Assembly: GCA_964019425.1 (NCBI GenBank)
Contig: OZ025790.1
Span: 1,426,001-1,490,000 of the forward strand
Source: Flectonema sp. DT1601
Taxonomy: Eukaryota
Direction of reading: 5' to 3'
DNA length: 64,000 nt
Numbering within the stretch: position 1 is the stretch's first letter; each line of letters starts with the position of its first letter. The position numbers were made by a program, and so were the translations under genes. Positions 18,479 through 62,759 of this stretch are shown here, piece after piece. A model generated the notes under the pieces. It had not been told where the DNA came from, made no database searches, and saw nothing but the letters and a program-made list of their open reading frames with translations.

Positions 18479-19817
18479 TGTTTTGTTAGTTGTCATCCTT
18501 GAGAAGTTAATATCCGTAACTGTTCAAAGGAAGTTTACAAACAGAGTAGAGCCGTAATAGTATTTTATAGGAAATCACAACCACAGAATATGTATGCGCT
18601 ATTTAGGAATCGAAAGCTGCTTTTCAGTTTTTCCTTATTACTTTACGATTGTTGCCGCCGTTTTGAACACTTCAGCAATTTTAATAAATATTTTTGTCTT
18701 TCAGTAGATTACTAAAAAAAAGAAGCAAATAAAACAACAATGCAAGTTTTTGTGACGTGTCCGGATTTAGGACTCCCTGCGGTGTCAGTCACAGTTGGTG
18801 CTGATTCTGTTGTGAGCGACGTGTTGACGACAGCGGCTGACGAGTGGGATGTCGATGCGGATGAAGTTGAACTGTCGTTCGCTGGTGATGCCCTTTGCGA
18901 AAATGAGCGGTTAGTAGATTATGGAGTGGGTGCAAACAGCGAGTTGGAAATGCGGGAGAAGCTGGTTCGGATCTTCTGTAAAAACTGGTTTGTTGATGAT
19001 AGAAAAAGAGAGAAGCTGCTTCTTTGGATGAAAGACCACATTACGGAGGATTTATGTCTGGACACTCCCACATTCTCAGAAGATGGTTGCCTCACTATTG
19101 ACAAAGGGTTGCTTCCTTCAGATGCCAAACGGATTTCCTTCCGCCATTCAAACTCCAACAGCAAGGTCATCTCACAAGTTACTTCTATTAAAGATCATTT
19201 CTTGTCTCGTTGTTCACACATCACTTCTCTTGACCTTTCAGGTCTTAGTAGAGTCACCAGTATTGGAAATCATTTTTTGTCTGAGTGTTCAATCACTTCT
19301 CTTGACCTTTCAGGTCTTAGAAGTATCACCAGTATTGGAAATAACTTTGTGTTTTCGTGTCCACAAATCACTTCTGTTGACCTTTCAGGCCTCCGTGGCG
19401 TTTCCAGTATTGGAAATGATTTCTTGTCTAACAGTTCAATTGCCTCTGTTGACCTTTCCGGTCTCAGTAGTGTCACCAGTATTGGAAATTGTTTTTTATC
19501 GTTGTGTTGTGCAATCACTTCTCTTAACCTTTCAAGTTTTAGTAGTGTCACCAGTATTGGAAACTTTTTCTTGTATTGTTCACTAATCACTTCTCTTGAC
19601 CTTTCAGGTCTTGGGAGAGTCACCAGTATTGGAAATCATTTCTTGTCTCGTTGTTCGCAAATCACTTCTGTTAACCTCTCCCGTTTTAGTAGGGTTTCCT
19701 ATATTGGAGATCATTTCTTGTCTGAGTGTTCACAAATCACTTCTCTTGACCTTTCAGGTCTTAGTAGTGTCACCAGTATTGGAAATAGCTTTTTGTATCG
19801 TTGTTCACGAATCACTT

Positions 19818-19885
19818 GGGATCACGACACCTGCCTCCTCGCGGCGGTCCCGGACGACTTCGATAGGGGTCGACAAGACGGTGTC
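19818..19885 (+). ncRNA. HDV-like self-cleaving ribozyme at the element 5' end
   Basis: P1 GGGATC/GGTCCC, P2 GACACC/GGTGTC, P3 GCC/GGC, L3 TCCTCGC, P1.1 CC/GG, P4 CGACTTC/GGGGTCG, J4/2 ACAAG with candidate catalytic C19874. The first G coincides with the TSD boundary. Confidence 0.85.
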
Positions 19886-20092
19886 AAAGACAAGAGATGC
19901 CAACACCATCAACACCAACTACCACATCCAGGGCATCCGTACCCTGGATGTTTTTTATCAAAAAAAGAACGGAACAAGCTAGCCCACGCCTTGAATGGCA
20001 ATGGTGGAACAAGAAAGAACAGCAGAGACCGTCGCCCCCGAGACGATACTCGCGACAGGGACGAAGACCGCCCAAACAAGGAAGAACGTCGG

Positions 20093-22804
20093 ATGGCGAA
20101 GCTCGAGAAAGAGAAACTCGACTCGCTCGACGAGATAGAGGAAGAGAGGCAACGGCTGGAGCAGCAGAAAACAGCCATGGAACAGCACCACCACCAGAAG
20201 GAAACCAACCTTCAAGGACAAGAAAAACAGTTGGAACAGCAACGCCAACACCAGCAACAAGAACTGCAAAGTCAGTACCACCAACAACAGCAGCAACTGC
20301 AAAGCCACCATCAGCTGAAGGAAACGGAAAGTCTCCAGAAGGAGCAAAACCTACAGGCTCAACTCAAAGAGCAACATCAGCACCAACAGAAGGAATTGGA
20401 GAAGCAATACCGCCGACGACAACAGCAACTGGAAAGCCAACAGCAGAAGAAGGACGCCGAGTCTGAACAGCAAACGCATCTGACTCGGTCACAACTACAG
20501 AAGGAAAAGGAATCCTTCCAGACGGAGAAGGAACGGCTCCACCTCCAGCTGGATCAGCAGCTAAAGAACGAGAAGGAGCACCTCCACCAACAACTGAACG
20601 CCGAGATAGGCAAACAGAAGCAGGGGCTCCAACTGAAGGAAGAGAAGCTCAAGGAGCAGATTGGACAGGAAAAAGTCCAACAACAACAAAAACTCCAACA
20701 GAAGGAAGACGAGATTCAACGGCGTGAAGAAGAGGTGAACCGAGGACAGCAGCAACTACACCAACAGCAGCAACAACTAGAGCAACAGCAACAGCAATCG
20801 CAACATCAGCAGCTGGAACTACAACAACAACGGCAACAACAACAACAACAGCATCAACAACTGGAACTGGAACAACAACAACTACAACAGCAACTGCAAC
20901 TGCAACAACATCGACAACCGCAACAACAACCGCAACAGCAACCCGTACACTACATGCAACATCAACCGTATGCAACGTACGACACCTACGCCCAGCAGCA
21001 GCAGTCTTCCCACTACGAAGGACTACAACAGGAACTGAAGCGCGAGAGAGAGGAGAAAAGCGAACTACGCGAGATGCTCCGAACTCTCCAACAACAACTG
21101 GACGGATTGAGAGAAGAACTCAAGGCCCAACATGCTGAGGCGAAGAGGCAGCAAGAAACGGCGGGACGGGAAGCGAGAGAGATGCAAGAACGTTTCTTGC
21201 TAGAACTGGAAGCGGAACGGGTCCAGATCAGAGGGCTCAACTCGCTGAGAGAAGAGGAAGAGGAACATCAGATGGACACCACCCCTGATCAGGAAGCAAA
21301 CACGGAAGCGAAGCAAACGCCACCGGTGAAGCTGCCCCAAGACGGTATGAGGGAGCTGGACGCCTCACGCAAGAAGCTGATGAAAGAAATCAATGAAGGG
21401 CAGGTAGCCGGACGATCGGCCATCCAAGAGCAGATGGTCCGAGAGGCCGGGAGACTGGCGCAGACTCAGAAGAGCTGGGAGAACGCAGCACGCAAGGAGC
21501 GATCCAGAGTGGATAACCTCTCGCTGGCACCGGAGTATTGGCCAGAGGGAATGGCAATCACGAAGGAGCAGTACGACGCCGGTACAAAGGGAGTACACCT
21601 CACCACCAGAGAGGAGGCAAGGAAGAGGATGTCGGGAACACCTCCGGGAGCCTGGGAAACGTTATCCCTGGTAACCCTGGAACCACCATCAGACACGGCG
21701 CAGAAAGTACAGGTAGTACTTAAGGAGACGACGAGCGACGGCGAGAAGAGAATTCTCAAGCAGCTCTGGATGACAACACTGGGAAGAGTGGTTGTACCAT
21801 CCGGAACAGACGTCGTGCGGACGGAAAGCACGAGGGAGATGGTTGTCCGAGTGGACAAAAAATGGTCCGGAGAGAAGAGATGGTCGGAAGTGAAGCGCTC
21901 CCCGATCAGGGCAACGGAAGAGTTGAGGAAGATGCCGGGGTATGTCGATACGTACAACCCGCGGATTGGAGACCAGAGCGTCACGGTGATGCTCAGGGTG
22001 AAGGTAGCCGAAGTGAAGAACTTCCTCCGAGAATCGGGGAAGGACGGCGTCTTCACCAAGGAAAAGGATCCGAGAGAGGAACGAGCAGTGAAGGCGGCGG
22101 TCATTTGGCTACCGAAGGACGAGACACTCGGAATCGCTCGAGACAAGGCTGTAGAAGTCGATGGAGGGCTGGGACTTGTGGTAAACGAACACGGACTCGG
22201 GCTTCGAGTGACCAGCTGGCAGGAAACGGCGGCGAGGGAGAAACTGCACCTGCCGGCTAAGCTACCGGAAACAAAGATCACGGGTATCCCGATCGGCACA
22301 ACCACCGACGAAGCGATCAAGTGGCTGATCACGAAGGAAGGCTGGGAAGTGAGGAAGACGAAGGAAGGCGTACGGAACGGCATGCGATGGATGGTCGTCC
22401 GCGGTCCGGTGAGAACGCAGGAAACCATCACGGTGGATGGCGTCCTGTGCATGGTGGAGGCTGGGAAACAGAAGGTGGAAGTCGACCCGAAACGGAAGGA
22501 GACCAAACGCCCGAATGCGACACCGACAAAACCGGAGAAAAGGCGTGACCCGACGGAGGGAACGGGAGGAAAGTGGTACACTCGATTGGAGTTCATCGAG
22601 TTTCATGGGAAGAAGAAGGGACAACGCCTATGGTTAGAAGCCAGCAACCCAACACCAACTACGACGGCACCTACGAAGGCAGCGACCGCAACGACAACAG
22701 CGAAAAAGGAGCCCAAGTCGACAAAAAAGAAGGAGAACAGCTCAGTGGACGAGAGATTGGACCGACTGGAACGTCTACTGATGGCGTTCATGGAACGGAA
22801 TTGA
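20093..22804 (+). CDS. Retrotransposon A1 ORF1 (poly-Q coiled coil plus conserved C-terminal domain); start uncertain
   Basis: First in-frame ATG inside the element is 20093, but the frame is open from 19818; Q/E-rich coiled coil; ends AAT-TGA. Confidence 0.75.
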   Translation: MAKLEKEKLDSLDEIEEERQRLEQQKTAMEQHHHQKETNLQGQEKQLEQQRQHQQQELQSQYHQQQQQLQSHHQLKETESLQKEQNLQAQLKEQHQHQQKELEKQYRRRQQQLESQQQKKDAESEQQTHLTRSQLQKEKESFQTEKERLHLQLDQQLKNEKEHLHQQLNAEIGKQKQGLQLKEEKLKEQIGQEKVQQQQKLQQKEDEIQRREEEVNRGQQQLHQQQQQLEQQQQQSQHQQLELQQQRQQQQQQHQQLELEQQQLQQQLQLQQHRQPQQQPQQQPVHYMQHQPYATYDTYAQQQQSSHYEGLQQELKREREEKSELREMLRTLQQQLDGLREELKAQHAEAKRQQETAGREAREMQERFLLELEAERVQIRGLNSLREEEEEHQMDTTPDQEANTEAKQTPPVKLPQDGMRELDASRKKLMKEINEGQVAGRSAIQEQMVREAGRLAQTQKSWENAARKERSRVDNLSLAPEYWPEGMAITKEQYDAGTKGVHLTTREEARKRMSGTPPGAWETLSLVTLEPPSDTAQKVQVVLKETTSDGEKRILKQLWMTTLGRVVVPSGTDVVRTESTREMVVRVDKKWSGEKRWSEVKRSPIRATEELRKMPGYVDTYNPRIGDQSVTVMLRVKVAEVKNFLRESGKDGVFTKEKDPREERAVKAAVIWLPKDETLGIARDKAVEVDGGLGLVVNEHGLGLRVTSWQETAAREKLHLPAKLPETKITGIPIGTTTDEAIKWLITKEGWEVRKTKEGVRNGMRWMVVRGPVRTQETITVDGVLCMVEAGKQKVEVDPKRKETKRPNATPTKPEKRRDPTEGTGGKWYTRLEFIEFHGKKKGQRLWLEASNPTPTTTAPTKAATATTTAKKEPKSTKKKENSSVDERLDRLERLLMAFMERN

Positions 22805-22888
22805 CCGGCGGAGGACGGAAGGAACTGGGCGGAGACACGGAGACGTCTCCTGCTACAAGCTGGCGACGTTGAGAGGAACCCCGGACCG
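22805..22888 (+). other. 2A-like StopGo peptide (LLLQAGDVERNPGP) directly after the in-frame ORF1 UGA
   Basis: Matches the D(V/I)ExNPGP consensus; in frame with both ORF1 and the APE domain; no ATG. Confidence 0.9.
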
Positions 22889-25800
22889 AGACCACGAATC
22901 GATGGGCTCACCGTGGGAACAATCAATGTCACCACACTAGAAGGAAAAATAGATGCCATCACAGATCTGAACCTAGATCTGATAGCTCTACAGGAAACTT
23001 CTCTGACGGGCCCACAGCAACGCCAGATGAAAAAACAGCTCGGTGAGAGAGGATGGGAAACGACGTTCGGATTAGAGTGCAAATTACTAACCGATGGGCA
23101 AAAGACGTGGACGGCGGCAGGAGGCGTGGCCATCTTGACGCGCACTGGTACACCGGTGAGAAGGATAAAACACGATCGGCTCGACAACACGGGACGATTC
23201 GTACACGCGGGAGTGTCGTACGGAAATGGCAAGGTACTGCACGTTTTCTCGTTCTACGGAGACGTACGTTCGGCGGTCTACACGGAAGAGTTGATTGCGG
23301 AGATGCTCGTGGAAGCAGCAGCTCTGGGTGATGTTCCCGTATTTATAGCGGGGGACTTCAACGTCGAAACAACGGAATCGCCGGCGCTTCTGTCGGCTTT
23401 CGCACACGGACTCTGGATAGATGCCGCCGTCTCGATGGGAAACATGACACCGACAAGCGAAGCGGGAAAAGGACTTCGTAGAATCGATGCTATTCTGATG
23501 AACCGCGGGGCGGCGACAGCAATCTCGAATGACACAACGATTCATGTGCATAAGAGTGAGCTGATCCCGACACACAAGCCGGTCATCATTAGAAAGCTCA
23601 ACATCTCACGCTACAACGAGAAGGCTCCTAGGCTGATAGTACCGAAACAGTTGGATACCTCCGAGACAACGGACCCGAGTGAGGGGAAGGCCGAAAGGCA
23701 ACTCCACTGGACGCGAGCTGTAGCGACGGAAGATCCTGACAAGATGCTGGAGGCGCTTGGAGAGATCATCGAAAGATACCTTCTGACGGGAAAGCTGGAG
23801 ATAAGTAACCCAGCCAAGTACAAGGGACGCGGGAAGAAGCGTGAGCCTGTGATGTGGACGAACGCGGCGAAACAAGACGGGAGAGGAGCGACGTGCAGGG
23901 AAACGCGAAGAAGACTGCAGAAGATACGTGTTCTGGAGGAAGTGATGAAAATCACAAAGCAACGCGATGGTCCGACGGTGCCGTCCCACGAAGTAATGAA
24001 ACTCTGGAAAAAATTACGAAAACTCGATCCGACGACGGGATCCGAAATACCACAGACGGAGGAGCTTCGGATACTACTACACAAGCGAGACAGGAGCAAG
24101 CGATAGAAAGCAAGAAGCTCCGAACTGAACGCATCCGCATGTGGAAACGGAATGTTGTCGACAATTGGAACGACGACCGCACGAAGGTTTTCCAGTGGAT
24201 CAGGAACGTCGAGCAATCGAAGACTGTTCTGATGGAAAAGGCAGATGGAAGCTGGACGGCCAACTGCTCCGAGATGGATGAGGCCATGCACGCGGCATGG
24301 GACCCCATACTCAAAAAGTACTTATCAGACCCGGAACCAGACTGGATGAAGTTCGAAGAACGGTACAGCAACTACATCGAGGAACACCCGATGCGATGCG
24401 AAGATATCACCGGGGAGGACGTTGCAAAAGCCCTCAGAAGAACTAGCTCGCGCAAAGCAGCTGGGGTAGACGGCTTCAGGATATCGGAGCTCAAGTCGCT
24501 ACCGGAGGACATGATTCAGATGATAGCGGAATTCTACAACATAGTGGAGAGAACACACTGGCCGGAAGCACTTCTCACGGCACTGGTGTCGGCCATACCC
24601 AAAGGGGCAGGGACGAAACCACTGGAGCAGAGACCCATTACGGTGACATCCGCACTTTACAGACTATGGGGCTGTATACGTATGGAAAAGGATGTAATGG
24701 AGTGGCAAGAGAAGTGGGCTCACGACGGGCAGTACGGCTACCGGAAGGGGAGATCTACGCTCGACCTCAGCTGGAAGATAGCACTAGACGTGGAACACGC
24801 AACTCTCTACGGAGAAGAGATTGCTGGAGTGACCACGGACTTCAGGAAGTGTTTCGACCTGATCCCGCACGACATCCTCCTGAAATTGGTGAAGGAATTG
24901 GGCCTCGGTGATGAGATCCTGAGAACTGTGACGGATGTCTACCGGCGACTCAGAAGGAGATTCAAGTTCCCGAGCGGCGTCGGAGAAGAATTTGCCACCA
25001 CCAACGGAATACTGCAAGGATGTCCGCTCAGCGTGGTGCTCTTCAATGCGCTGAGCTCGATACTCAGCAAAGCAATCGAGAGGGAAGCCGATGTGACGCC
25101 CGGATCGTATGCGGACGACCTGACGTTGTTTGGATCACGAACGAAGCTACAAGAAGGCGTAGAAGTCGTTGCGGAGTTCTGCACCCTGACCGGACAAGAA
25201 CTCGCACCTCAGAAGTGCAAGTGGTTCTCGAACAGAGACCAGGGCCAGACCAACATCACAATGGGGGACACAACACTGGACTTCGATGACAGTGTCGATA
25301 TCGTGGGATGCCACCTCAGTATGAAAGGAACCACCAAGCAGATTGGGAGGATCACGGAAGAAGTGCTCGATAGAGCGAGGCGAATCCGGTTACTTCCGCT
25401 CAGATATCAAGCGAAGGAACAGATAGCTGCAGCTAGTGTCATGCCCAAGGCGCTCTTCGGAACGGCACTGTACGATCCCGATGCGACGCGACTCGGACTG
25501 CTGAGAAGAGCAATGGCAACGGGGATTTTCCGCAAACTTGGAGGGAAAAGAACTAAGATGTCGCACACCATGGGCCTAACGCTACTCTGCAAGGGACATT
25601 GTGTGGATCCCGCGACGTACATTAGGTACAACAGACTCCTTGCACTCACCAGAATGCTACCGAAGCTAACTGAGAGGATACGCAGGGTATGGGAACACCT
25701 GCAAGAGCACACTGAAGCGACGAGAGGACCAGTCGGCCTCGCCCTGAGTACTCTGAAGGAACTTGGATGGGAATGGTCAACTTTCTCGGTCTTCGAAGGT

Positions 25801-27540
25801 CCGGGAGGGACGACCGAACACGGAAGGCTGGATGCGGGGCGCTGGCGGCACGATGTCAGAGAGGCGTGCAGACGTTTCACCTGGAACAAAACAATTGCGG
25901 AAACGAGACGGGTAAACCTGAGAGGTATTGAAGCGGGCATCGACCGGAAAGAGACCCTGAAGGTCCTGAAGGAAGGAAAGGGCGACCCCTACCTGCGCGG
26001 AGTAGTGAAGCACTGCCTCCTGGACAACGTGTACACTGGCTCGATGAAGGCGGGAAACAAGAACTGCGCGCACTGCGAGGAGGTTGACGACGTAGAGAGG
26101 ACGGAGACCCTCGAGCACGTGAACTGGGATTGCAGAGCTTATGACACAATCCGACAGGAATACCCGCAAGTGATGCTACAAGTTCGAAGCGATTGGCCCA
26201 ATTGCCTGAGGCTACTCGGCATCAAGCCCGACAATGTGGAACTGCCGGCGGGGCTCACCGGAGACCTACAACGAATGTTCGCACGGATCAGGCTCCGCAG
26301 GGACGACTACCAACAACTGGAGGAAAGACGGCTGACGGTTGTGGAATACGCTGGGAACAAGGAACCGGAAGTGGTTATGCGATACAACAACAAACTGGAA
26401 AAGTACATGCCAGTATACACCCAATGGCCCGAAGCCCTTGGATTGACCTTGTACTTGGCGCTTGCGAGCTACCTGAGGGAACTGAAGTGGCCTCGACAGC
26501 CAGACGGAGTCGGAGTCACCTTCCTGGAATTAGCGATCGACTTCGAAGCGTATGCGGGGGTTGACATACCGACCACAGTCCACGAAGGCCACGTAGCGAA
26601 GTGCACCAAAGACAGAGCCGCCGGGAAGAAAGCTGACGTCATGTGTGGACTGATGCTAAGATTGAACTTGGTTCACAAGCATTTAGAAGGCGAGGAACAA
26701 AGAACCTTTCCCGACTACTGCGTAGGAAGCAACAAAGCCTTACGTCCGCTAGGAGCCCCGGTACTGAAAGGTTTGAAGAAACGACCAGCTTTTCTGATGG
26801 GAGACGAAACAGTAGACACAATTCGGAGGACGGTCCAAGAGGCGAACGACGGAAAAGCTGACAAAATCAGATTCGGCTTCGAGACTGAGTGCAGGCACTC
26901 GAGCGAGAGGGAAGGGAGAGCGGAGAAATGGATAACCGCGGCACGACTTTTCCCATCAAAGGAAAAAGACGTACAGCTGAGGAGGGAGCTCTGCGAGCGA
27001 GGACCGACACGCCCGCCACCCGAGGTCGTCAAGAGACCGGGCATCGCGGAAGGACAAGGAACGATGAACTCGACGTGCTACGGACACTTCAAGAAAAAAT
27101 GCAATAGTTGTCGACGGGCCGGAAACACCATCTACCAGTGCTGCCACAACCATCACACTCTGGGGGATGAAGATGGACAAATACCGATATGGGACTTTTG
27201 CAGCAAGCACAAGCTTACTCCATGTGCAGTCTGCATAGTTATCGGCAGAGGATCTGAGCAATGTTGCAGAAACAGCCACCACCGATGCCGTCACCACGAG
27301 ATGGCTCCCTGCAACGACTGCAAGCGGAATCCGGATCCGGAACAACGGACTGCCACGAAATGCTGCAACAAAAAGCATCACGGGCCAATTATAAGGACGT
27401 TGACGAGGAGGGCGAAGCAGCCGACGAAGCATGATATGCAAACCAGCACATCTCTTCTAAAATTAGGTTTCACCAAACAAATGAAACCGAAAGCAGAGGA
27501 AACCCCGGAAAGGGAACCACAGGACAAGGGGTTAACTTAG
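22805..27540 (+). CDS. Retrotransposon A1 ORF2 (APE, RT, CCHC, Cys/His repeats) with one frameshift near 24080
   Basis: APE: TINVTTL, ALQET, AGDFN, RIDAIL, THKPV. RT: QRPITV, DFRKCFD, GILQGCPLS, YADD. CCHC: CAHC...EHVNWDC. The APE ORF stops at 24106 and RT continues in another frame. Confidence 0.9.
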
Positions 27541-28739
27541 GTTGGCCGAACCAGTGCCTCGTCATCTCACCGTGCTAGCAAGCCTGAATGACAGCACTCA
27601 AAATGGTACATATATCGTTGTTCACGAATCACTTCTCTTGACCTTTCAAGTCTTAGTGATGTAAAGGAAATTGGTAGAAAACCCCTCGTTAGCTGCAGCT
27701 CCCTAAAATCTGTTCAGCTGCCTAAAAATAATGGCGCTATCTTTGAGAGGGTTATGAAATTTGAAAATTTAAATGTAAAGTGTTGAACCGATTCTTGGTT
27801 GTCATTTTTTCTTCTTCTTTTTTTTTTTTTTTTTTTACTTTTTTTTTAAAGTATCACAAAAGAGCTTTAACAACGACAGATTGCTCTGAAGTTGCTCCAG
27901 AAACACCTTCCAGTTGATCATCTTGAATTCCATCCTAAATAGATGAACACTCTATTAAGGGATTTGGTTATTTGAGTGTTCGGACATCATAGTTTTTAGA
28001 GAGGAGCTTCATGTGTGACCGACACAACCTGAAACTTAAAAGGTAACCGGTAGGATGTGTTGTAGCATTTGTGATGAGAATATTCTACACAAAACAACTT
28101 TTAATCTCACATTCCGATATAGTCAAAGAGAATGTGATCATGATGTTTGTTTTGTGATTATTTATATGTTCCCGCATGTGGTGCCTCAGTTTTTCAAGAT
28201 CAATGCAAAAGAACTTATCACTCGCAGCTTAGTCTTGCGAAATATGCTACAAGTTTGCTACGAACGGAGAAATATTTCATTTTGATTATTTTTTGAAAAA
28301 TAATTTTCGAAAATAGTTTTTCTAATATTTATTTTATTCAAAGTGTGTAAAGAAGTACTAAGTCTTTTTTAATTTTCCTTTAATATTTATTTGCTTTTGA
28401 AGTGTGAGAGAATACTATTTTAAGCTGCAACAGACTACAGGGCATGGTAGTACGTGTCCCCCGAACCCCATATTCGACAGCACATATGGAATTTTTATTG
28501 ATACCAATTGCAACGAGGTTGGCCGAACCCTATTCTTGTTTTAGCCAGTTTCAAGTTGCTTTCAATTTAATATTAGTATCAAGTTACTCCCCACTGCTAA
28601 TAATGGGGGAGCCTCAGTCTGATTGTTTAGGGAGGACTCCTTAGCCTCCCAAGGATTTTGTTATGTTTACTGAAAGAGAAATTGATGCGAATAATTGCAA
28701 TGCAGGAAGGGTGGGGAGAAAGTACATAACACTTAAAGT

Positions 28740-29300: not shown

Positions 29301-29797
29301 TCTCATCATTTTTAACCAGGGGGGGGAAAAAAAAACCTTTTCTCGTTTGTTTTTTTTTTAAATAACGGGACTCAGATAAAAAAAAAAAAAAAAAAAAAAA
29401 CTAACTAACCTTTTTTTTTTAATTTTTTTATCCTAATCTGAAAAATTAGTTCTGAACTTTAACGGGGATGTCAACACGATGTCGCTATGCTGTAATTGAT
29501 TGTTCTAGTTGGTATTGTTAGTCTTTCTTTTTTTTTTTGAAAGAAAGAAAGAGAGAGAGAGAGAGAGAAGGAAACATTATTTTTTTTCAAAAAAAAAGAA
29601 AGAATAAAAACTCAGGTACTTGTTATTTTAATCTGTAGTATTGTACTTACTGTTGTTCTTAGGTCACTAATTACAAAACAATGATGGTTTTTTTTTTTTT
29701 TTTAATTCCTTGTCTTGTTCGAAAAATAACTACGAGACGCAACATTAACTTCATTCATACTATCAGTTATTTATTATATTTATTAAAAAAAATAAAA

Positions 29798-30925
29798 ATG
29801 GTTCACTTTCACATTAGAGGAGAAACAAAGCCTGCAGAGAGAAGAACTGCAGTAACACCTGATGACGCAAAGAGACTTATTGAAGCTGGTCACCAAGTGA
29901 CGGTTGAAAGTTTTCCTGACAGATGTTTTCCCGACGCAGCATATGCTGAGGTGGGATGTGCAATGGCTGAAGCTGGATCATGGGAGAAGATCGATCAAAG
30001 TAGAGTAATCTTAGGACTGAAGGAATTACCTGAGGGAGACAGTGGACTACCACATCAGCATATCATGTTTGCTCACTGTTTCAAATACCAAGACGGATGG
30101 AAGGAAGTAATGAAGAGATTCACATCAGCAAAGGGAACCCTCTTCGACTTGGAGTTCCTCAAGGAAGAAAACGGTCGCAGAAAGGTGGCATTTGGTAAGT
30201 CTGCAGGATTTTGTGGAATGGGCACTGGAATCCTATGCTGGGCCCTCCAACAGCAAAGCGGCGACAAAATGACTCGCAACGCCCTACCAGCTGACCTTTG
30301 GTACCGCACCAGAGACGAATACATTAACGCCTGTGCTGACGCTATAAAGAAAACAGGAAAGGGATTTCCAAAGGTTATGATCATCGGAGCTCTTGGTAGG
30401 TGCGGATCGGGAGCCACTGAAATGGCTCTTGCGACGGGAATTCCAAAGGAAAACATCGCCATGTGGGACATGGCAGAGACTTCAAAGGGAGGACCTTTCA
30501 AAGAAATATTAGACTATGATGTTTTTGTTAATTGTATCTACTTGGACCCAAAAACTAAGGCTGCTCCATTCTTGACTACAGAAATGCTGAACAGCGATAG
30601 AAAGTTATCAGTCATGGTCGATGTCTCTTGTGATCCAAACAACCCAGCCAACCCTGTTCCTGTCTACAAGGAATGCACAACATTCTTAGAACCTGTTAAC
30701 CGAATTGTAGCCCCGAGTGAGGGAAAAGCTCCTTTCGATGTTATTGCCATTGATCACTTGCCTTCCCTTGTTCCTTGTGAGAGCAGTACAGAGTTCAGTG
30801 CAGGACTCCTTCCGATGTTAATCGACTTTGAGAAGGATAGTGAAAATGTTTGGTCTCGTGCCAAGAAAACTTTTGAAGAAATCGCCGCACTTCCAGAGAT
30901 GAAGGATCAGACAAGTCAGCTGTAG
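29798..30925 (+). CDS. LYS1: Saccharopine dehydrogenase (NAD+, L-lysine-forming), copy 1
   Basis: Motifs RGETKPAERR, ILGLKEL, FAHCFKYQ, DLEFL, IIGALGRCGSGA, DVSCDPNNP, IDHLPSL; ATG at 29798 by comparison with copy 2. Confidence 0.92.
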   Translation: MVHFHIRGETKPAERRTAVTPDDAKRLIEAGHQVTVESFPDRCFPDAAYAEVGCAMAEAGSWEKIDQSRVILGLKELPEGDSGLPHQHIMFAHCFKYQDGWKEVMKRFTSAKGTLFDLEFLKEENGRRKVAFGKSAGFCGMGTGILCWALQQQSGDKMTRNALPADLWYRTRDEYINACADAIKKTGKGFPKVMIIGALGRCGSGATEMALATGIPKENIAMWDMAETSKGGPFKEILDYDVFVNCIYLDPKTKAAPFLTTEMLNSDRKLSVMVDVSCDPNNPANPVPVYKECTTFLEPVNRIVAPSEGKAPFDVIAIDHLPSLVPCESSTEFSAGLLPMLIDFEKDSENVWSRAKKTFEEIAALPEMKDQTSQL

Positions 30926-32146
30926 GCTTTGGGGTGTTGATGGGAAGAAAGGAAAGAAATTGTCAAATCCCCCAAATGGAAAATGTCGCACCCCCCATAA
31001 GGTGATCATTCTCCCAGTGGGGTAAAAAAAAAAAAAAAAAGAAAGAAAAAAAAAAAAGAGCAATCTTCCTGTCTACAAAAGCATGCATGTTCACATTAAA
31101 AAGGAGTTTTTCGCAACTCTGGGAACACACACAGTAGTAGACTACATCATTTTCAGAGTTCAGTTTGTTTTTACCTTTTTCTTTTTCTTTTTCTTTTTTT
31201 TTTTTTGCCTCCACTCAAAACTCCAATTGCATGTGGTACAAAGAGATCGGAGAGATTTGGAAGAAGAAAAAACAACAGAATTCTGTTTGCGGTTCCTATG
31301 AGATGGAAATTTCGTTCTTTTTTTTTGCTTGTAAGTTATCAGTGCTCGTAGATATATCGGTCCCCTTTAAAATATTAGGATACATCGTTTTTTGGGATGA
31401 ACAGGAATAAAAGAAAACAAAAAATAAAAGAAACAACTTTGACTACTAAAGTGATAAAAGACTACTCACTCTCGTTGTGTATTTCTTCATTTGGCTCGCG
31501 CGCAGAATGTGTAAAATATTCGCGACGGCTTTATTAATTTCGGGAGTTGATTCGCTGTGTGTTTTTTTTTTGCTGAAAGAAAAAAAAAAACGAAGGAAAA
31601 AAAAAAGAAAAACACCCCTCTTACTCCCATTTTTAATTTTTTTTTTGTTGTCGTTGTTGTTGTTGTCTTTTGTTCCATTGCTTCGGTAGTCAAATAAAGT
31701 AAGTTTAAGCAATTAAACATGAAAAAAAATTAAATTAAATTCTTATTTTTTTCACTTCAAGGAATAAATGACCAGACCACTAGACGGTCCTTTCGTAAAT
31801 CAGTTTTCACATCCGTCAGCGACAGACGAATGCTGTGTTTCCGTCATGCGGAAGAATTACAGAACGAACTGTCACTGATGTGGTGAAACGGGTGGGACGA
31901 AATGTCTCAAGACCCAACTAGGCAACGACGAAACCACCCAAGCCAGGTGGTTGCCTGAGGCATCCCAGGAATGGGTGTGTCCTACAAAACATCAACAAGT
32001 GTTATATTACTATTTTCTGTATAGTTTAAGATAAAGCCAATTCTTTTTTTTAATTCCTTGTCTTGTTCGAAAAAAATAACTACGAGACGCAACATTAACT
32101 TCATTCATACTATCAGTTATTTATTATATTTATTAAAAAAATAAAA

Positions 32147-33274
32147 ATGGTTCACTTTCACATTAGAGGAGAAACAAAGCCTGCAGAGAGAAGAACTGCG
32201 GTAACACCTGATGACGCAAAGAGACTTATTGAAGCTGGTCACCAAGTGACGGTTGAAAGTTTTCCTGACAGATGTTTTCCCGACGCAGCATATGCTGAGG
32301 TGGGATGTGCAATGGCTGAAGCTGGATCATGGGAGAAGATCGATCAAAGTAGAGTAATCTTAGGACTGAAGGAATTACCTGAGGGAGACAGTGGACTACC
32401 ACATCAGCATATCATGTTTGCTCACTGTTTCAAATACCAAGACGGATGGAAGGAAGTAATGAAGAGATTCACATCAGCAAAGGGAACCCTCTTCGACATA
32501 GAATTCCTCAAGGAAGAAAACGGTCGCAGAAAGGTGGCATTTGGTAAGTGGGCAGGATTTTGTGGAATGGGCACTGGAATCCTATGCTGGGCCCTCCAAC
32601 AGCAAAGCGGCGACAAAATGACTCGCAACGCCCTACCAGCTGACCTTTGGTACCGCACTAGAGACGAATACATTAACGCCTGTGCTGACGCTATAAAGAA
32701 AACAGGAAAGGGATTTCCAAAGGTTATGATCATCGGAGCTCTTGGTAGGTGCGGATCGGGAGCCACTGAAATGGCTCTTGCGACGGGAATTCCAAAGGAA
32801 AACATCGCCATGTGGGACATGGCAGAGACTTCAAAGGGAGGACCTTTCAAAGAAATATTAGACTATGATGTTTTTGTTAGTTGTATCTACTTGGACCCAA
32901 AAACTAAGGCTGCTCCATTCTTGACTACAGAAATGCTGAACAGCGATAGAAAGTTATCAGTCATGGTCGATGTCTCTTGTGATCCAAACAACCCAGCCAA
33001 CCCTGTTCCTGTCTACAAGGAATGCACAACATTCTTAGAACCTGTTAACCGAATTGTAGCCCCGAGTGAGGGAAAAGCTCCTTTCGATGTTATTGCCCTT
33101 GATCACTTTCCTTCCCTTGTTCCTTGTGAGAGCAGTACAGAGTTCAGTGCAGGACTCCTTCCGATGTTAATCGACTTTGAGAAGGATAGTGAAAATGTTT
33201 GGTCTCGTGCTAAGAAAACTTTTGAAGAAATCGCCGCACTTCCAGAGATGAAGGATCAGACAAGTCAGCTGTAG
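32147..33274 (+). CDS. LYS1: Saccharopine dehydrogenase, tandem copy 2 (5 amino-acid differences)
   Basis: Near-identical to copy 1, including the 5' flank and much of the 3' flank. Confidence 0.9.
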   Translation: MVHFHIRGETKPAERRTAVTPDDAKRLIEAGHQVTVESFPDRCFPDAAYAEVGCAMAEAGSWEKIDQSRVILGLKELPEGDSGLPHQHIMFAHCFKYQDGWKEVMKRFTSAKGTLFDIEFLKEENGRRKVAFGKWAGFCGMGTGILCWALQQQSGDKMTRNALPADLWYRTRDEYINACADAIKKTGKGFPKVMIIGALGRCGSGATEMALATGIPKENIAMWDMAETSKGGPFKEILDYDVFVSCIYLDPKTKAAPFLTTEMLNSDRKLSVMVDVSCDPNNPANPVPVYKECTTFLEPVNRIVAPSEGKAPFDVIALDHFPSLVPCESSTEFSAGLLPMLIDFEKDSENVWSRAKKTFEEIAALPEMKDQTSQL

Positions 33275-52279: not shown

Positions 52280-52353
52280 TACCCCATGTGAGACTCGAAC
52301 TCACAACCTTTGGATTAGAAGTCCAACGCGCTATCCAATTGCGCCAATGGGGC
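52280..52353 (-). tRNA. tRNA-Arg(TCT)
   Basis: Reverse complement GCCCCATTGGCGCAATTGGATAGCGCGTTGGACTTCTAATCCAAAGGTTGTGAGTTCGAGTCTCACATGGGGTA folds as a cloverleaf with anticodon arm TTGGA-CTTCTAA-TCCAA. Confidence 0.95.
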
Positions 52354-52403: not shown

Positions 52404-53503
52404 GTTACACTCGTCTGTGCTACCAAACTCTTTGTTTATGTTCTTTTCACTTCTATGTTTTGTCTTTCTTTTATACTTTCTTTTTGACTTAAGTCTGACA
52501 AATTGGAAAACACGGGAAACATAGGTAGGCTCCGCCTGAGGACGTAAGAAGAGCGGCAACGGAAAAAATAAATGGTCACGCGTCCTTGAGATTGGACACA
52601 CGAAGCTAATTCGGTTACCATTCCTACCATCGATAAGGAAAACAAAGAATCGAGCATATAACTAGAGCGGTGGTCAAAGACCACTTGAACAGCCCGAAGG
52701 CCTGCCCTCAAGAGAAATTAATAAGGAGAATAGGAGAAGAAGGAGAAAGGAGTATTGGAAGGGACACTGAGACAACACCGAAGGTGATGTGCAGTTACCC
52801 AACCAGGAGATGATTGATAATGATGAACATACTAAAAATAATAACAAATTGATATTGGCGACTGCATGTCACCTACTTTACTTCCAAAGTCTAAGGTTAG
52901 ATGTTTGTTCCATCCACCTTATGATCAACGCGAGTGATGGAAGCCACGCCAAAGTGAAGAGAGCTTCAAGGTTAGGAATTTCGTTGGCAATAATAAGTTC
53001 TCGATCGCGATCCCACTTGCCGGTCAGTGTTGAGAAGCCCAGGATTTTGAACCTGGCAGAGTCGAGTTTGGGAGATTGACATCCCTGCAGCAGGTGAACC
53101 TGTGAGGACGGTTCGCCACAAAATGGGCAGTCGATTTTCTTGCGCCAGTTCTGAATTAGCGGGTGACATCCTGTCCGGAAGTTCGCTATCCGTATCTCGT
53201 CGGCTCTTTCCATCCCAGGAGGGTATTTAACGGAACGGCCTCCGATGAGGTGTTTGTAGCAGGTGTAACCACTCACGTTAAGCAGATCCTTTTTGATGCA
53301 GCGCTTAACATGTGATGATCGCGAGAAGTAAGTGCCTTTGACTAGCACAGGTCGGATGTTCTTGTTGTGCGCTGCTTCCTTTGCAAGCGCGTCAACTTCA
53401 TCGTGAAACTCGATTCCAATGTGCGAGGGGATGAATTGCAAATGCACTTTCATTTCACACATGCGCAGGTATTCTAGTATCTTGAGGGACTCAGTATTCC
53501 TCT
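52373..53503 (-). mobile_element. 5'-truncated LINE copy (element B1): end of RNase H, CCHC, 3' UTR, poly(A)
   Basis: Near-identical to 59612-60714; T-run at ~52372-52402; flanked by 9-bp duplication AACGATTCT at 52364-52372 and 53504-53512. Confidence 0.9.
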
Positions 53504-53577: not shown

Positions 53578-54942
53578 ATGTCCGGAACACAAGAATCGAT
53601 GGTCGTGCAGCAACAAGAGCAAGCACAGCAATCAATGATGCAACAGCAGCAAGCACAGCAATTAATGGCACAGCAACAGCAGGCACAACACTTAATGATG
53701 CAACAACAGCAGCCGCAACAGCCAACACAAAGCCAGCCGGTACAACAACAAGCGCAGAACAATTCCAACAATTGCTTTTTACATGGCAACTGGACGCTTG
53801 AGACTTTAAGTCAGTCGCAAACTCACCTTCCCAACAATGTCCCACCAATCTCCCCCTTTTCGTTTATGAGCTCACCAATGATAGCGTTTAAACAGTATCT
53901 CAGAATAACAAATCTGTATTTTAAAACAATAAACATTTTAAGTTTAAAAGAAATGCACTTCACAGTTTCAAAAGACAATGTTGTAAACGTTTTTTCTTGT
54001 TTATTGGAAATCAAAAAAGAATGTGCAGCTGATTTCTTAGAAATATCCGGCCAACACGGCATTTTCTTTTCCGAACACAAAAGCACTCAACACCTCTCCT
54101 CCTACTACACAATTGTGTGGACCCCTGACACACCTTACACCCAGCTTAAAAAGATAGCAATCGATCTCAATAAAGACCCAAAAAACAAAGGAGCCCTCGG
54201 GCTCACAATGTACCAAGGAAGAAGCCTTGGGATACGAATTAAAAAAGAATCAGAAACAAACTTTCGTTCAAATTTTGGAGTAAAATGTCCGACTTATTTC
54301 GAGATAAGCGGCATAAGCAAAGAGAACGCAACGTCATTTGACGTTGAATTTTTTTTTGATTTAATGAAAAAAAAAATTAAGTACTGTTATAAAAAAAAAA
54401 GGGAAGAGTCACATGTTGTGAGCTCGTACGAGAATCTGCAGTCTTGCGGATCAGTAATCGTTAAAAAAATAACTCAACCCTCAAAAGATGAAAGAAGAAT
54501 TGAAAAGAACTCAATAGAAACGAAAACAGACCAAACTGAAAAAAAAGATATTAACGAAAAAGGAAAAGGAAAAGGAAAAGGGAAAGGGAAAAAAGGAAAG
54601 AAAGGAACTAAGGGAGAGAGCGGTAAAGGAAAAAAAACTGTTTTGTCATCACCGTCAACCTCAGTAACCCCGTCAATAGAACAAACGGACATTTTAAACC
54701 AGCTAAAATTATTGTTAGATGCACAAACAAAGCATCTAACAACAAAGATCATTGGCACTTTTCTAGCCGATGATCCGAAAAAGCAAGCAGAAGCTTGGGA
54801 TGCGGAAATAAACCCGCAAGAAAAAGAAGGTTTTCTACAAGGATCGATGGACGATGACATCGATCTTGTGAAACAGAAGCTGGACAAAGAAAACGATGGT
54901 GATGACAACACAAAAAGAAAAAAAGAAGAACCTCCGAATTGA
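53578..54942 (+). CDS. Retrotransposon A2 ORF1 (poly-Q N-terminus, conserved central domain, KG repeats)
   Basis: 454-aa ORF starting 24 nt after the SL relics; motif-level similarity to A1 ORF1; ends AAT-TGA. Confidence 0.85.
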   Translation: MSGTQESMVVQQQEQAQQSMMQQQQAQQLMAQQQQAQHLMMQQQQPQQPTQSQPVQQQAQNNSNNCFLHGNWTLETLSQSQTHLPNNVPPISPFSFMSSPMIAFKQYLRITNLYFKTINILSLKEMHFTVSKDNVVNVFSCLLEIKKECAADFLEISGQHGIFFSEHKSTQHLSSYYTIVWTPDTPYTQLKKIAIDLNKDPKNKGALGLTMYQGRSLGIRIKKESETNFRSNFGVKCPTYFEISGISKENATSFDVEFFFDLMKKKIKYCYKKKREESHVVSSYENLQSCGSVIVKKITQPSKDERRIEKNSIETKTDQTEKKDINEKGKGKGKGKGKKGKKGTKGESGKGKKTVLSSPSTSVTPSIEQTDILNQLKLLLDAQTKHLTTKIIGTFLADDPKKQAEAWDAEINPQEKEGFLQGSMDDDIDLVKQKLDKENDGDDNTKRKKEEPPN

Positions 54943-57900
54943 CTGTTTCCTTATAATTTATATCTTTTTTATTTCTCGAACCTTCTTTTGTGTGGAGACA
55001 TCCACCCGAACCCCGGTCCACAAAAAAAGCAAAAAAACAGTGAGCTGAGAATTGTATCTTTTATTGTTTGTGGTCTCAAGTCGAAATCCGACGAAATAAC
55101 TTTTTTTTTACAAAATATAAAACCTGACCTATTCATGGTTCAGGAAACATTGTTAAAGGATAACGACGAAACCATTAATTTTAATGGGTACAAGTGTCTC
55201 AGAAGAGACCGGAGAATTCCGGTAAAAAAAAACGCACCCGTCAGAGGTGGTGGATTGGCAATTTTTTACAAAAACAGCCTAAGCGTGACAGCATTCGCTG
55301 TTGCACAACACAGCCAAGACTGCACTGAAGTCCAGGGCATTTTTGTGTCAAATTCAAAACAAACTGTAAGGGTATACAACGTGTACAGACCACCGGTAAG
55401 CCAATCAACCTCTGATAGGTCCCCCTCTTTTGATATGAATAGTATTTTTCTTTTTAATAAAAATGATAAAGTAGTTATCGCGGGGGATCTTAACGCAAGG
55501 CATCCACTCTGGGACCCGAGAGACGAGTCAAACACAAATGGCCATGAAGTCTCGACTTTTCTAAACAATAACCAGTTTGAATGCTGCAACGTTAAGGAAA
55601 TCCCCACAAGACCAAAATCAAACACTTCTCCTGATGTTGTTCTCCAAAAAAACTGTGATATTGGCAACTGGACGACGCTCGAATCTCTATCAAGCGATCA
55701 TGTACCAATGTATTTTTCTCTTTCTTTTTTTTCGGATTCGATAAACAGAGCGAACGGTGCAACGGTTTTTTCTTATAATTGGAACAGGGCACTGTGGCCA
55801 AACTACAGCTCCCACCTCGAAAGGGTGGCGAAGCGACTTGAAAAGATTCAAGATAACCAGAAATTATCAATGGAATTCATAAGAGAATTAAAAAATGCGT
55901 TACGGATCTTTGTACCAAGGATTTATTTGAAAGGAAAGTCACCAAAGAAGTGGTGGAACACGACGGTTGCATCTAAGTTTCATGAGTTCAACGAGTCACA
56001 TTGTGACCAACGGGATGATCTTACAGATCTGTCGCAACAGGGAAAGTCAATTTTTACATCTTTAAAAAAAGAACTCAAAAAAACAGTCGTTGATGCCAAG
56101 AATCAACAGTTTAAAAAAAGCCTTAAAAAAGACAAGTCTATTATTGAAGCTTTTGAAGACATAAGAGGCCTTGATGGAAGATCAAGACTTAAAGAAATTC
56201 GAGAAATCACCTGTGGTGATAAACTTGTTACAGATGATGTGGAAAAAGCATCAATTTTCAATAATCAATTTTTACAACGTGTTGGTAACATCAAAGAAAA
56301 AACAAAGACAAAGAAAATAGAAACAGACCCTTCTGATTTTACACCATTTACACAACATGAACTTAGAATCCAATTGAGAGGAATGGCTCTGGAAAAGAAT
56401 TCACCAGATGGCGTTCAAGGTATTCTTCTTAACCATTTGGGACCTAGAATGCTAAACATTTTACTTAAGATTTTTAACAATTCGTGGAAACATTCTGTTG
56501 TCCCGAGTGATTGGAAAGACACACACTGGATCCCTGTTTTAAAAAAAGGAAAACCCCCAAACCTCCCCTCTTCATATAGAATGATCTCTCTCACCCCTTT
56601 TATTGCGAAATTGATGGAAAGAATGGTGAAGGAACGTCTTACGTATTTTATGCAATCACCGAATGAAAAGAAAACTGACGGTATTGGTTTCAACCAAACT
56701 TCTTATCGGAAAACGCGTTCTTGCCGGGAAAACATCCTATATGTTACGGACAGACTTAGATTTCTTAAACACCAAAAAAAGTCAGCGGCCCTTGTTCTTC
56801 TTGATATCGAAAAAGCTTTTGATAGTGTGAACCATGATCTTCTCCTTCAAAGGATGGTAGATCTTGGAATACCAAAACATTTTATAGCCTGGATTCAGGC
56901 CTTTCTTAAAAAACGAAGAGCAGCGGTTGTTGTTAATAATGAAAAAGGTTCTTACCACAATGTTTATTCTGGCGTTCCACAAGGAACAGTTTTGTCGGCT
57001 CTACTTTTTACTCTGTATATTGAAAAAGTCGCAGAAAGACTAGATATTACGGTTGCTAAGTATGCGGATGATATTGCTTTTGTAGTTGATGATGAAGGGA
57101 AAGGTTTTACTTATCATTTGGCAAAAACGAAATATTTCTTTAATGAGATTGAAAAGGATCTAAACGAATTAAAATTAAAAGTAAGTTATGAGCCTGACAA
57201 AACAAAACTTGTGTATTATCCCTACTCCCCAAATTCCCCACTACAAACACCTTTCACTTTTACTTCAAATTTAACAAAAAATATTGTTCCATGTGTTGAT
57301 AGCGCCAAGCTTCTTGGGGTGATCCTTGATAACAAGCTCGATTGGAAACAGCATATCTCGTACATTTGTAGAAGAGTTAATCTTCGCTTAAGGTATCTGA
57401 AGCTTGTCGCATCAAAAGCATGGGGACAGTGTACTGCAACTTTGCGTGAGGTGTATGATTTGTATATTCGACCTGTCATAACAAACTCGTGTGAAGCTTT
57501 TTATCCTGAAGTTAGGTATAAAAAGATTCACATGGACAGGCTTCTCTCTTTACACCTTAGGGGTGCGTGCTATGTCTTAGGTGCCTTACCACCAACAAGG
57601 GAAACAAGAGATAAGATCTTTTTTGAGGCACAACAACAAAGTATCAACACCCATTTGAGACTTGAAACTGGTAGATGGTTCGCCAAAATGGCGCGAATCA
57701 CGTCCCCTTTATTAAATGTCTTTATTCCACCTGAAAGAATATCCTCAACACCCATTGATTCTTTTACTCGTTTAGGAATGAATGTTCTGAAAGAACACAA
57801 CCTTCTATCACTCAGTTTTGAGAAATATCCCATTTACGTTCATCCTCCATGGAGTTTTTCAAATGATTTCAATGTTTTTAAACCAGAAATGCATGTTAGA

Positions 57901-58887
57901 AAAAAAAAAGACAAAAAGAAAAATAAAAAAGCCTGTGAAGCTGTTCTTAATGAAATAAGGAAAGATTATGAACCAGTCTTAGAGGTATATACCGATGGTG
58001 CCGTTGTTGAAGAACGCGGTGCTGCGGGTGTGTACATCATAGACAGCGAAGGAAATGAATTTCTCACAAACAAAAGTGAAGCAGGAATAATCTGCACCTC
58101 TTTTAGGGCTGAAATGATGGCGATCAAAAACGCTTTTGTTTTACTTTTTAAGGAATTTAAACCGCCGGAAAATGCGTCAGTTTTATTTGTGTCAGACTCC
58201 TCCAGTGCCTTGATGGAACTGGAAAAAGGGGGAACAAAACAGAAAACGAGACTAGGAAGCCGCATCTGGCAGTTTATTGAATTTTTCAACAATAAATTCA
58301 AAACAAAGTTTATTTTCCAGCATGTCTTTTCTCACTGTGGTATTGTCGGAAACGAAGAAGCAGACAAACTAGCCCAAAACATTTCATTAAAAAAAGATGA
58401 AGAAACCCTTTTAAAACAAAAAAAAGTTCCCATAGACTACAGCACCCATGTAGCTAAACTAAAACACAGAATAAAAGAAAAATTTGACCCCCGTCCTTTC
58501 CCATCTGAAACTGAAAGAGCGGAAGAAATTCTGATTTCACAACTCAGAATTGGCGACTGTAAACAAACACAAGGGAAATGTCCTAGGTGCAGAGAAAAAG
58601 ACTCTGTAGAGCACCTGTTAGCAAAATGCTCAAAGTACAGAAAAGAGAGGAGGGTGTATCTCCAGAAAGACTCTCTAACACAAGAAGAGTTAAAGGATTG
58701 TCTTTCCACTGTACAAGGACTAGAGAATGTTTTTCTTTTTATGTCATCTGCAAGAAGATATGTATTTCCAGAAAAAGAAAAGAAAAAAGAAAATTTGAGT
58801 CAGGAAACAAAGAAAGAAAATGAAGAAAACGTTATCCTTCAACCCACACTTTTCAATACTGTGATTCAAAACTCACAACTGACTTGA
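54943..58887 (+). CDS. Retrotransposon A2 ORF2: 2A-like peptide, APE, RT, RNase H, CCHC (in frame with ORF1, no ATG before 2A)
   Basis: LLLCGDIHPNPGP; APE MVQET, YRPP, AGDLNARH, SSDHVP; RT LDIEKAFDSV, GVPQGTVLS, YADD; RNase H YTDGA, FRAEM, VSDS, HCGIVGNEEAD; CPRC...EHLLAKC. Confidence 0.92.
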   Translation: MFPYNLYLFYFSNLLLCGDIHPNPGPQKKQKNSELRIVSFIVCGLKSKSDEITFFLQNIKPDLFMVQETLLKDNDETINFNGYKCLRRDRRIPVKKNAPVRGGGLAIFYKNSLSVTAFAVAQHSQDCTEVQGIFVSNSKQTVRVYNVYRPPVSQSTSDRSPSFDMNSIFLFNKNDKVVIAGDLNARHPLWDPRDESNTNGHEVSTFLNNNQFECCNVKEIPTRPKSNTSPDVVLQKNCDIGNWTTLESLSSDHVPMYFSLSFFSDSINRANGATVFSYNWNRALWPNYSSHLERVAKRLEKIQDNQKLSMEFIRELKNALRIFVPRIYLKGKSPKKWWNTTVASKFHEFNESHCDQRDDLTDLSQQGKSIFTSLKKELKKTVVDAKNQQFKKSLKKDKSIIEAFEDIRGLDGRSRLKEIREITCGDKLVTDDVEKASIFNNQFLQRVGNIKEKTKTKKIETDPSDFTPFTQHELRIQLRGMALEKNSPDGVQGILLNHLGPRMLNILLKIFNNSWKHSVVPSDWKDTHWIPVLKKGKPPNLPSSYRMISLTPFIAKLMERMVKERLTYFMQSPNEKKTDGIGFNQTSYRKTRSCRENILYVTDRLRFLKHQKKSAALVLLDIEKAFDSVNHDLLLQRMVDLGIPKHFIAWIQAFLKKRRAAVVVNNEKGSYHNVYSGVPQGTVLSALLFTLYIEKVAERLDITVAKYADDIAFVVDDEGKGFTYHLAKTKYFFNEIEKDLNELKLKVSYEPDKTKLVYYPYSPNSPLQTPFTFTSNLTKNIVPCVDSAKLLGVILDNKLDWKQHISYICRRVNLRLRYLKLVASKAWGQCTATLREVYDLYIRPVITNSCEAFYPEVRYKKIHMDRLLSLHLRGACYVLGALPPTRETRDKIFFEAQQQSINTHLRLETGRWFAKMARITSPLLNVFIPPERISSTPIDSFTRLGMNVLKEHNLLSLSFEKYPIYVHPPWSFSNDFNVFKPEMHVRKKKDKKKNKKACEAVLNEIRKDYEPVLEVYTDGAVVEERGAAGVYIIDSEGNEFLTNKSEAGIICTSFRAEMMAIKNAFVLLFKEFKPPENASVLFVSDSSSALMELEKGGTKQKTRLGSRIWQFIEFFNNKFKTKFIFQHVFSHCGIVGNEEADKLAQNISLKKDEETLLKQKKVPIDYSTHVAKLKHRIKEKFDPRPFPSETERAEEILISQLRIGDCKQTQGKCPRCREKDSVEHLLAKCSKYRKERRVYLQKDSLTQEELKDCLSTVQGLENVFLFMSSARRYVFPEKEKKKENLSQETKKENEENVILQPTLFNTVIQNSQLT

Positions 58888-62730: not shown

Positions 62731-62759
62731 TTATTTTTTTATTTTTTTTTTTTTATACT

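Follow-up and report, generated by a model that had tools for sequence, protein, structure and literature searches.

How does a retrotransposon translate its second reading frame when that frame offers no usable AUG? The question is raised by A1, a full-length long interspersed nuclear element (LINE) of the apurinic/apyrimidinic endonuclease (APE) type in Flectonema sp. DT1601 (contig OZ025790.1, positions 1,426,001 to 1,490,000; this whole stretch of 64,000 nucleotides is the window below). Its first open reading frame, ORF1, ends in UGA, beyond which the same frame continues through a 2A-type (StopGo) peptide into ORF2, which encodes the APE and a reverse transcriptase (RT). Judged by sequence comparison, this AUG-less ORF1-UGA-2A-ORF2 junction is real and selected, being read directly in at least two families and by inference in a third. 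The translation of ORF2 in bicistronic LINEs has been stated as an open question (PMC3894237, PMC3708506, PMC4176336; here and below, papers are cited for the passages concerned).

The junction at the end of A1 ORF1

The junction reads CGG AAT TGA CCG (window 22796-22807) and is followed in frame by 27 codons up to the Gly-Pro site of a canonical 2A core, or 28 with the final Pro (22886-22888); the window letters thus agree with the preliminary description, which had reported 28 Met-less codons leading into the APE domain. The core has the form GD(V/I)ExNPG/P with a leucine cluster upstream, as in class A 2A/StopGo peptides. The earliest in-frame ATG of ORF2 lies at 23027 (codon 75), and because this is past the N-V-T and Q-E-T motifs of the endonuclease N-terminus, a start there would yield a truncated enzyme. 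Translated in all six frames, the window contains only two NPGP motifs, one in A1 and the other in a second element, A2. Both ORF1s end in TGA-C (2/2), compared with 0/30 other ORFs and 0/14 other TGA-ending ORFs, a post hoc count over 32 window ORFs of at least 150 amino acids from a Met, which include some shadow frames besides the host genes and element ORFs. In all of the ORF1 families seen (6/6), the final residue was Asn or Lys, specified by an AAN codon. No AUG overlaps or adjoins the ORF1 stop in the manner of the SART1-type stop-start at either A1 or A2. Among near-cognate starts in the A1 post-stop stretch, only AGG at codon 6 leaves enough peptide, and no near-cognate start is common to the families.

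The stop was found to be fixed among the copies reached, which came from called proteins and one sequencing run, X1; two other runs, X2 and X3, gave no matching sequence. A contig from this run spanned 22400-24300 (1901 nt) unbroken, with the TGA intact, 11 substitutions relative to the window (9/11 silent) and one extra base near 24080, where a frameshift of 1 nt splits ORF2 of the window copy; counting frames through this base gives an unbroken ORF2 in the X1 copy. Because this copy is unbroken, keeps the TGA and differs mostly by silent changes, the A1 family gives the impression of selection and recent activity. Run X1 may derive from the sample that gave this DNA, so its sequence would stand for a further copy or allele within one organism. 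Among the called A1 proteins, 5 other copies on 5 different contigs terminate at the residue where the window copy does, whereas another 3 cluster members or hits are broken before that point. In the three sister families (56-63% identity), 22 of 23 proteins end at the equivalent place, the remaining one being the frameshifted protein P0002, and all three Flectonema ORF1 isoforms end in Arg-Asn, as does A1. On the evidence of these copies and families, the A1 stop is no chance lesion, which bears out the preliminary description. Comparison of copies, as proposed there, upheld the stop in the complete copies reached; among named relatives, Flectonema P0005 and Diplonema ambulator P0031 have a Met of their own. 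Of the conserved AAT-TGA-C that it had also proposed, the TGA and the frame stood, and the context has to be widened to AAN-TGA-Y: UGA followed by C was read directly in A1 and A2, while the sister family has AAG before the stop and C or T at +4.

P0002, from a sister family with 59% ORF1 identity to A1, carries a frameshift shortly ahead of the stop, so that its residues preserve the second and third bases of each ORF2-frame codon. Shifted back, it allows a TGA right after the terminal Ser-Lys, with a pyrimidine at +4 and no ATG before the 2A site. Its post-stop peptide is compatible with that of A1 at 27/28 aligned positions (the best of 100,000 shuffles reached 17), in an alignment that contains one hand-placed 2-codon gap and in which the first bases of codons are not fixed; the third base differs at 17/27 positions. 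Residues appear to be kept under silent change from the stop onward, well upstream of the 2A core, a pattern that we read as a protein-coding signature. Thus, the combination expected of programmed readthrough, a conserved in-frame stop with a coding signature beyond it, was found here, its cross-family part coming from P0002. Since the stop is fixed, the frame is kept, AUG is lacking and the signature begins at the stop, we take it as very likely that the post-stop segment is translated and that the junction is a selected design.

A second element and the wider family

The junction of A2 reads CCG AAT TGA CTG (TGA at 54940-54942), with 25 codons to the Gly-Pro site and the first in-frame ATG at 55135. 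Its stop was read directly in one copy only; in copy P0217, TGA and CGA are both compatible with the stop position, and no fusion protein was present among the A2-family proteins examined (0/15, out of 18 listed). At the start of the A2 APE (55063-55065), the window copy has Ile, as does P0210, the window's own call, versus Asn, of the usual first APE motif, in P0217. A tree of 37 RT rows, which held no named clade references (no named Ingi/L1Tc sequences), grouped A1 with two Flectonema proteins (100/100) and set A2, a long branch, across a 100/100 split. The preliminary description had used the same layout in a divergent element as an argument against chance; the layout and the distant RT branch were confirmed, but the ORF1s of A1 and A2 are homologous (23% identity over 124 amino acids, E 5e-7), so common descent may explain why both elements have the junction.

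Among named organisms, the closest matches come from diplonemids, Flectonema neradi for A1 (ORF1 38%, APE 61%) and D. papillatum for A2, which makes a diplonemid the likely host. Since P0099, P0065, P0056 and D. papillatum P0162 each combine an ORF1-like part with an APE part within a single called ORF, in-frame continuity occurs in this group. Among 150 APE relatives, the GD(V/I)xxNPGP form is present in 17, and some relatives carry an OTU domain ahead of the APE. A shorter motif directly before the APE, G-E-x-x-(N/H)-P-G, was seen in 33/150 (P0010-P0154) and is a putative 2A. To the eye, residues 1-185 of Flectonema P0005 resemble a Josephin-type protease, and two RGG-G sites come next, in place of the 2A; this reading of the N-terminus found no Pfam or PDB match, and the protease-like domain is possibly a proteolytic counterpart of 2A. 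The idea that the same N-terminus is another frame of ORF1 was rejected on comparison. Another Flectonema protein, P0221, starts with a Met that lies within the APE domain, which may reflect an ORF2 lacking an AUG or a partial call that was trimmed; it was left out of the counts.

Outside this group, we collected 55 loci with a 2A from a metagenome scan (43/602 confirmed among the matches listed, mostly animal-type LINEs) and a genome scan (12/111 confirmed). Across these, the ORF1-stop-2A layout is not very general. The sole A1-clade locus among the matches listed (L194) has an in-frame TGA-T followed by 31 codons and no in-frame AUG. In an IMG/VR control of 172 distinct 2A contexts among the matches listed, 4 had an in-frame stop within 40 codons, and in none was there an AUG-less TGA-C.

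Proposed readthrough and skipping, and the alternatives

We consider it probable, with moderate confidence, that ORF2 is made by low-level readthrough of the UGA followed by 2A skipping. Most ribosomes would stop at the UGA and yield the ORF1 protein (ORF1p); a few would read through and add a tail of ~28 residues, whereupon the 2A is predicted to skip the Gly-Pro bond, giving a free ORF2 endonuclease/RT (ORF2p) that begins at Pro. A high ORF1:ORF2 ratio would be set in this way from one RNA without a second initiation. Readthrough with 2A would account for the strict frame, UGA-Y, AAN before the stop and the missing AUG, as well as for the need to free ORF2 from an ORF1 of 450 to 1,000 residues. 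Readthrough is reportedly promoted by adenines immediately 5' of the stop and by C at +4 (PMC4615788); the same source agrees with the earlier statement that UGA-C is the leakiest context, on data from mammals, fly and yeast, not from this lineage. In P2A, the change of Glu to His, as in A2, left 0.85 activity (10.64898/2026.09.24.754024).

Several observations weigh against this proposal. At the junction itself, the type II readthrough motif UGA-CUA or UGA-CGG is absent (+4 to +6 are CCG in A1 and CUG in A2), and no 3' stimulatory RNA structure common to A1 and A2 was found by folding z-scores (A1 0.56 over 99 nt and -2.35 over 146 nt; A2 -0.60 and -0.38; one of four low). The first codon past the A2 stop, CUG, is a near-cognate start. 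The sister-family junction was deduced from one frameshifted protein, not from DNA, and the called-protein search covered up to 2,335 amino acids, a range below the ~2,570 of a full A1 ORF1-ORF2 fusion. Among relatives, Flectonema P0005, the closest named one (61% APE identity, from the same Trinity gene as the ORF1 homolog), has its own Met and a different 181-residue N-terminus with only a degenerate NPG, and P0031 of Diplonema ambulator has its own Met 92 residues ahead of its 2A. Of the outside loci among the matches listed (n=55), 39 carry a Met of their own, 9 show a stop but no Met, and in 7 the frame runs open to the end of the contig; TGA-C was seen at 2/48, each of which has its own Met. 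The A1-clade locus L194 also carries a UGAUG overlap in another frame as well as later frameshifts, and it is decayed. Finally, only 43 of 580 retroelement 2A peptides were highly active, and many were weak (10.64898/2026.09.24.754024).

Some of these points fit an alternative in which ribosomes terminate and reinitiate at a non-AUG codon at or just past the UGA, the 2A trimming a short leader or dampening ORF2, as proposed for L1Tc. The CUG of A2 stands straight after the UGA and would leave 25 residues before the Gly-Pro site, the post-stop coding signature is compatible with it as well, and translation of L1 ORF2 is said, in work by Alisch from 2006, to be AUG-independent. Moreover, in most known LINEs the 2A follows the element's own start (PMC3708506), in line with the 39/55 loci above, and stop-start coupling in SART1 and unconventional reinitiation in L1 offer precedents (PMC5972666). 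However, A1 has CCG past the stop and no good near-cognate codon early enough, neither junction has an overlapping AUG, and reinitiation does not require the choice of UGA, the pyrimidine at +4 and the strict frame seen in three families; past long ORFs it is usually out of frame (PMC10275272). We regard this alternative as unlikely, although with an appreciable chance of being right. Decidedly less probable is an RNA or ribosome entry of ORF2's own, by trans-splicing, by a cis-intron that removes the stop or by internal entry. Diplonemids do have spliced-leader trans-splicing and GT-AG introns (PMC10161547), the A2 post-stop stretch is 72% pyrimidine and then AG, and frame-keeping GT..AG pairs cross the stop (26 in A1, 2 in A2). 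None of these pairs, however, has a donor GTAA, GTAT, GTGAG or GTACG; the A1 junction is purine-rich (22-48% pyrimidine), the residues conserved right past the stop speak against an intron there, and even a trans-spliced RNA would offer no AUG ahead of the first endonuclease motifs.

Readthrough could also be real while skipping at the 2A-like peptide is inefficient or gives way mostly to stalling, resulting in an ORF1-ORF2 fusion or an extra brake on ORF2. Among tested ORF2p-linked 2A-like peptides, 59% mainly lowered protein abundance (PMC13405545), and changes of the Glu often abolish skipping (PMC3708506); since the full canonical motif and the leucine cluster are nevertheless kept in A1 and the sister family despite saturated silent sites, we hold this variant to be very improbable. 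That the TGA is a chance nonsense mutation, an assembly error or a sense codon within a single ORF1-2A-ORF2 frame is scarcely credible. Assembly indels do break the sequence (the frameshift at 24080, fragmented copies) and single-ORF relatives exist, but the stop is common to X1 and to all complete copies of four related families, by which this explanation is largely refuted; reassignment of TGA to sense was rejected because host genes (calpain and the leucine-rich repeat, or LRR, gene) end in TGA and long host ORFs have no in-frame TGA.

To readthrough followed by skipping may be added a broader picture, for and against which we see about equal chances. The junction would be a natural two-step cassette, UGA readthrough with 2A StopGo ~25 codons on, a module that very distant RT lineages retain or exchange; relatives may place a deubiquitinase-type protease and RGG cleavage sites there, and A1 would also be freed from a host co-transcript by a ribozyme resembling that of hepatitis delta virus (HDV), making three unconventional steps in one site-specific element.

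The elements in their setting and among known systems

The coordinates of A1, A2 and other features of the window are collected in Table 1.

Table 1. Features of the 64,000-nucleotide window.
Feature	Position	Strand	Remarks
5' copy of A1 target-site duplication, 22 bp	19796..19817	+	Identical to 27613-27634
Element A1, full-length APE-type non-LTR (long terminal repeat) retrotransposon in a ubiquitin-like + LRR host gene	19818..27612	+	Target-site duplication; Pfam LRR_5, Exo_endo_phos, RVT_1
Predicted HDV-like ribozyme fold, from the element's first base	19818..19885	+	Own hand-written descriptor
A1 ORF1, Q/E-rich low-complexity part, then domains like the RNA recognition motif (RRM)	19818..22804	+	Open from the 5' end of A1; same frame as the host gene
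ORF1 stop TGA with C at +4, candidate readthrough site	22802..22805	+	TGA at 22802-22804; unaltered in X1 copy; 5 other called copies share the end residue
A1 AUG-less in-frame 2A-type peptide	22805..22888	+	Predicted skip Gly (22883-22885) / Pro (22886-22888); coding signature versus sister family
A1 ORF2	22886..27540	+	APE ~22952-23521, RT ~24619-25245, Cys/His-rich tail
3' copy of A1 target-site duplication	27613..27634	+	Host LRR gene resumes, stops at 27784-27786
A2 ORF1, homologous to A1 ORF1	53578..54942	+	Ends CCG AAT TGA
A2 AUG-less in-frame 2A-like peptide, Glu to His variant	54943..55020	+	CTG is the first codon past the stop
A2 ORF2: APE, RT, RNase H in a single frame	55018..58887	+	Pfam
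Membrane-type protein, 1,563 amino acids	839..5569		~260 copies of a 12-nt repeat (Pfam PT repeat)
Two tandem alanine dehydrogenase/PNT-like genes	29663..33274		
tRNA-Arg(TCT)	52280..52353	-	
Duplicated 3' piece of A3	52878..53501	-	Upstream of A2
5'-truncated LINE with RT (A3)	60089..62752	-	
RNase H end of another element	62685..63803	+	

The HDV-like descriptor, used to look for a nested double-pseudoknot pairing from G+1 and written after the site had been seen, matched once across both window strands, at the A1 start, and 0 times in 10 shuffles; Rfam on 19500-28000 gave no ribozyme match and one chance hit. A structure model of A1 ORF1 (pLDDT, the predicted local distance difference test score, 82.6) had RRMs as its best structural matches, which were middling (Z at most 7.5, root-mean-square deviation 3.0 over 70 residues; best Foldseek E 1.1e-3). 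The endonucleases of both elements matched Pfam Exo_endo_phos (PF03372; residues 50-239 in A1) and the RTs of both matched PF00078; RNase H had no Pfam hit in A1 ORF2. No target-site duplication of A2 was found in the flanks compared. Copies of A1 on other contigs and the Flectonema relative (P0004, P0155, P0160) lie in frame at the same LRR-repeat position of the same host gene family, so that A1 looks target-specific. Called host-ORF1 fusion proteins arise from in-frame A1-type insertions, the frame being open through the predicted ribozyme (window 19796-19885). The first in-frame ATG of A1 ORF1 (window 20093) is Leu in P0004 and P0155, so that initiation of ORF1 may be unconventional or use a later Met. 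At the other end of the window, the sequence matches the N-terminus of P0184, and a sister-family element therefore likely starts just beyond 64000.

As the preliminary description had stated for trypanosome L1Tc/Ingi and other LINEs, a 2A directly ahead of the APE is known from L1Tc/Ingi and from animal CR1, L2, Rex1 and Crack (PMC3708506, PMC3894237, PMC5814959). With these elements, A1 shares the predicted HDV-like ribozyme at +1 and the target-site duplication, and A2 the order APE-RT-RNase H, from which A1 differs in having no RNase H hit. However, these elements mostly have no ORF1, and the Ingi/L1Tc clade is characterized by a single ORF, whereas A1 and A2 keep a long ORF1 abutting the 2A across one UGA. 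In 2A LINEs, the peptide has been argued to replace ORF1 as a brake; CR1-26_BF, CR1-53_BF and CR1-1_LG have both ORF1 and 2A, and the cited passages do not describe these as in-frame, AUG-less or read through (PMC3708506, PMC3894237, PMC5814959). ORF1-2A-ORF2 is represented in the cited literature by two pseudoscorpion cases.

The layout also recalls viral readthrough. Fusions made in this way, gag-pol and nsP3-nsP4, are cut by a protease. In A1 and A2, release would instead be co-translational by 2A, and no shared pseudoknot or stem was found. The likeness to gammaretroviral gag-pol and alphavirus nsP3-nsP4 lies in the succession of a structural or abundant product, a leaky in-frame stop and a polymerase (PMC4178896, PMC3159437, PMC13517186), and alphaviruses read through UGA-C, as found at A1 and A2. 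SART1 stop-start (UAAUG) and mammalian L1 reinitiation similarly couple ORF2 to the termination of ORF1 on a bicistronic LINE RNA (PMC5972666), but A1 and A2 have neither an overlapping AUG nor a spacer with its own AUG, and they have a 2A past the stop. In cardioviruses, two close recoding events likewise lower enzyme output (PMC5009743), although StopGo comes before a -1 frameshift, in the reverse order, by frameshifting rather than readthrough and in a virus, not a retrotransposon. Readthrough and 2A are thus both of known kinds. Their combination at a LINE junction, a stop read through into a 2A, was not found in the open-access literature (the papers cited here, with PMC12278014 and PMC8310308 among the texts covered), a scope that leaves out Repbase reports and subscription journals, and within it the earlier remark that such a cassette is not known to have been described holds.

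If true, the proposed mechanism would be a distinct solution to the translation of ORF2, joining two recoding events, whereas 2A was earlier thought mainly to replace ORF1. It predicts an ORF1p longer by ~28 residues and an ORF2p beginning at Pro. The layout is invisible in protein databases, because gene callers place the beginning of these ORF2s within the endonuclease or at a substitute codon. The junction would also constitute a compact natural cassette for co-expression at a fixed ratio and, if our best reading holds, a gag-pol-like readthrough in which the 2A replaces the protease.

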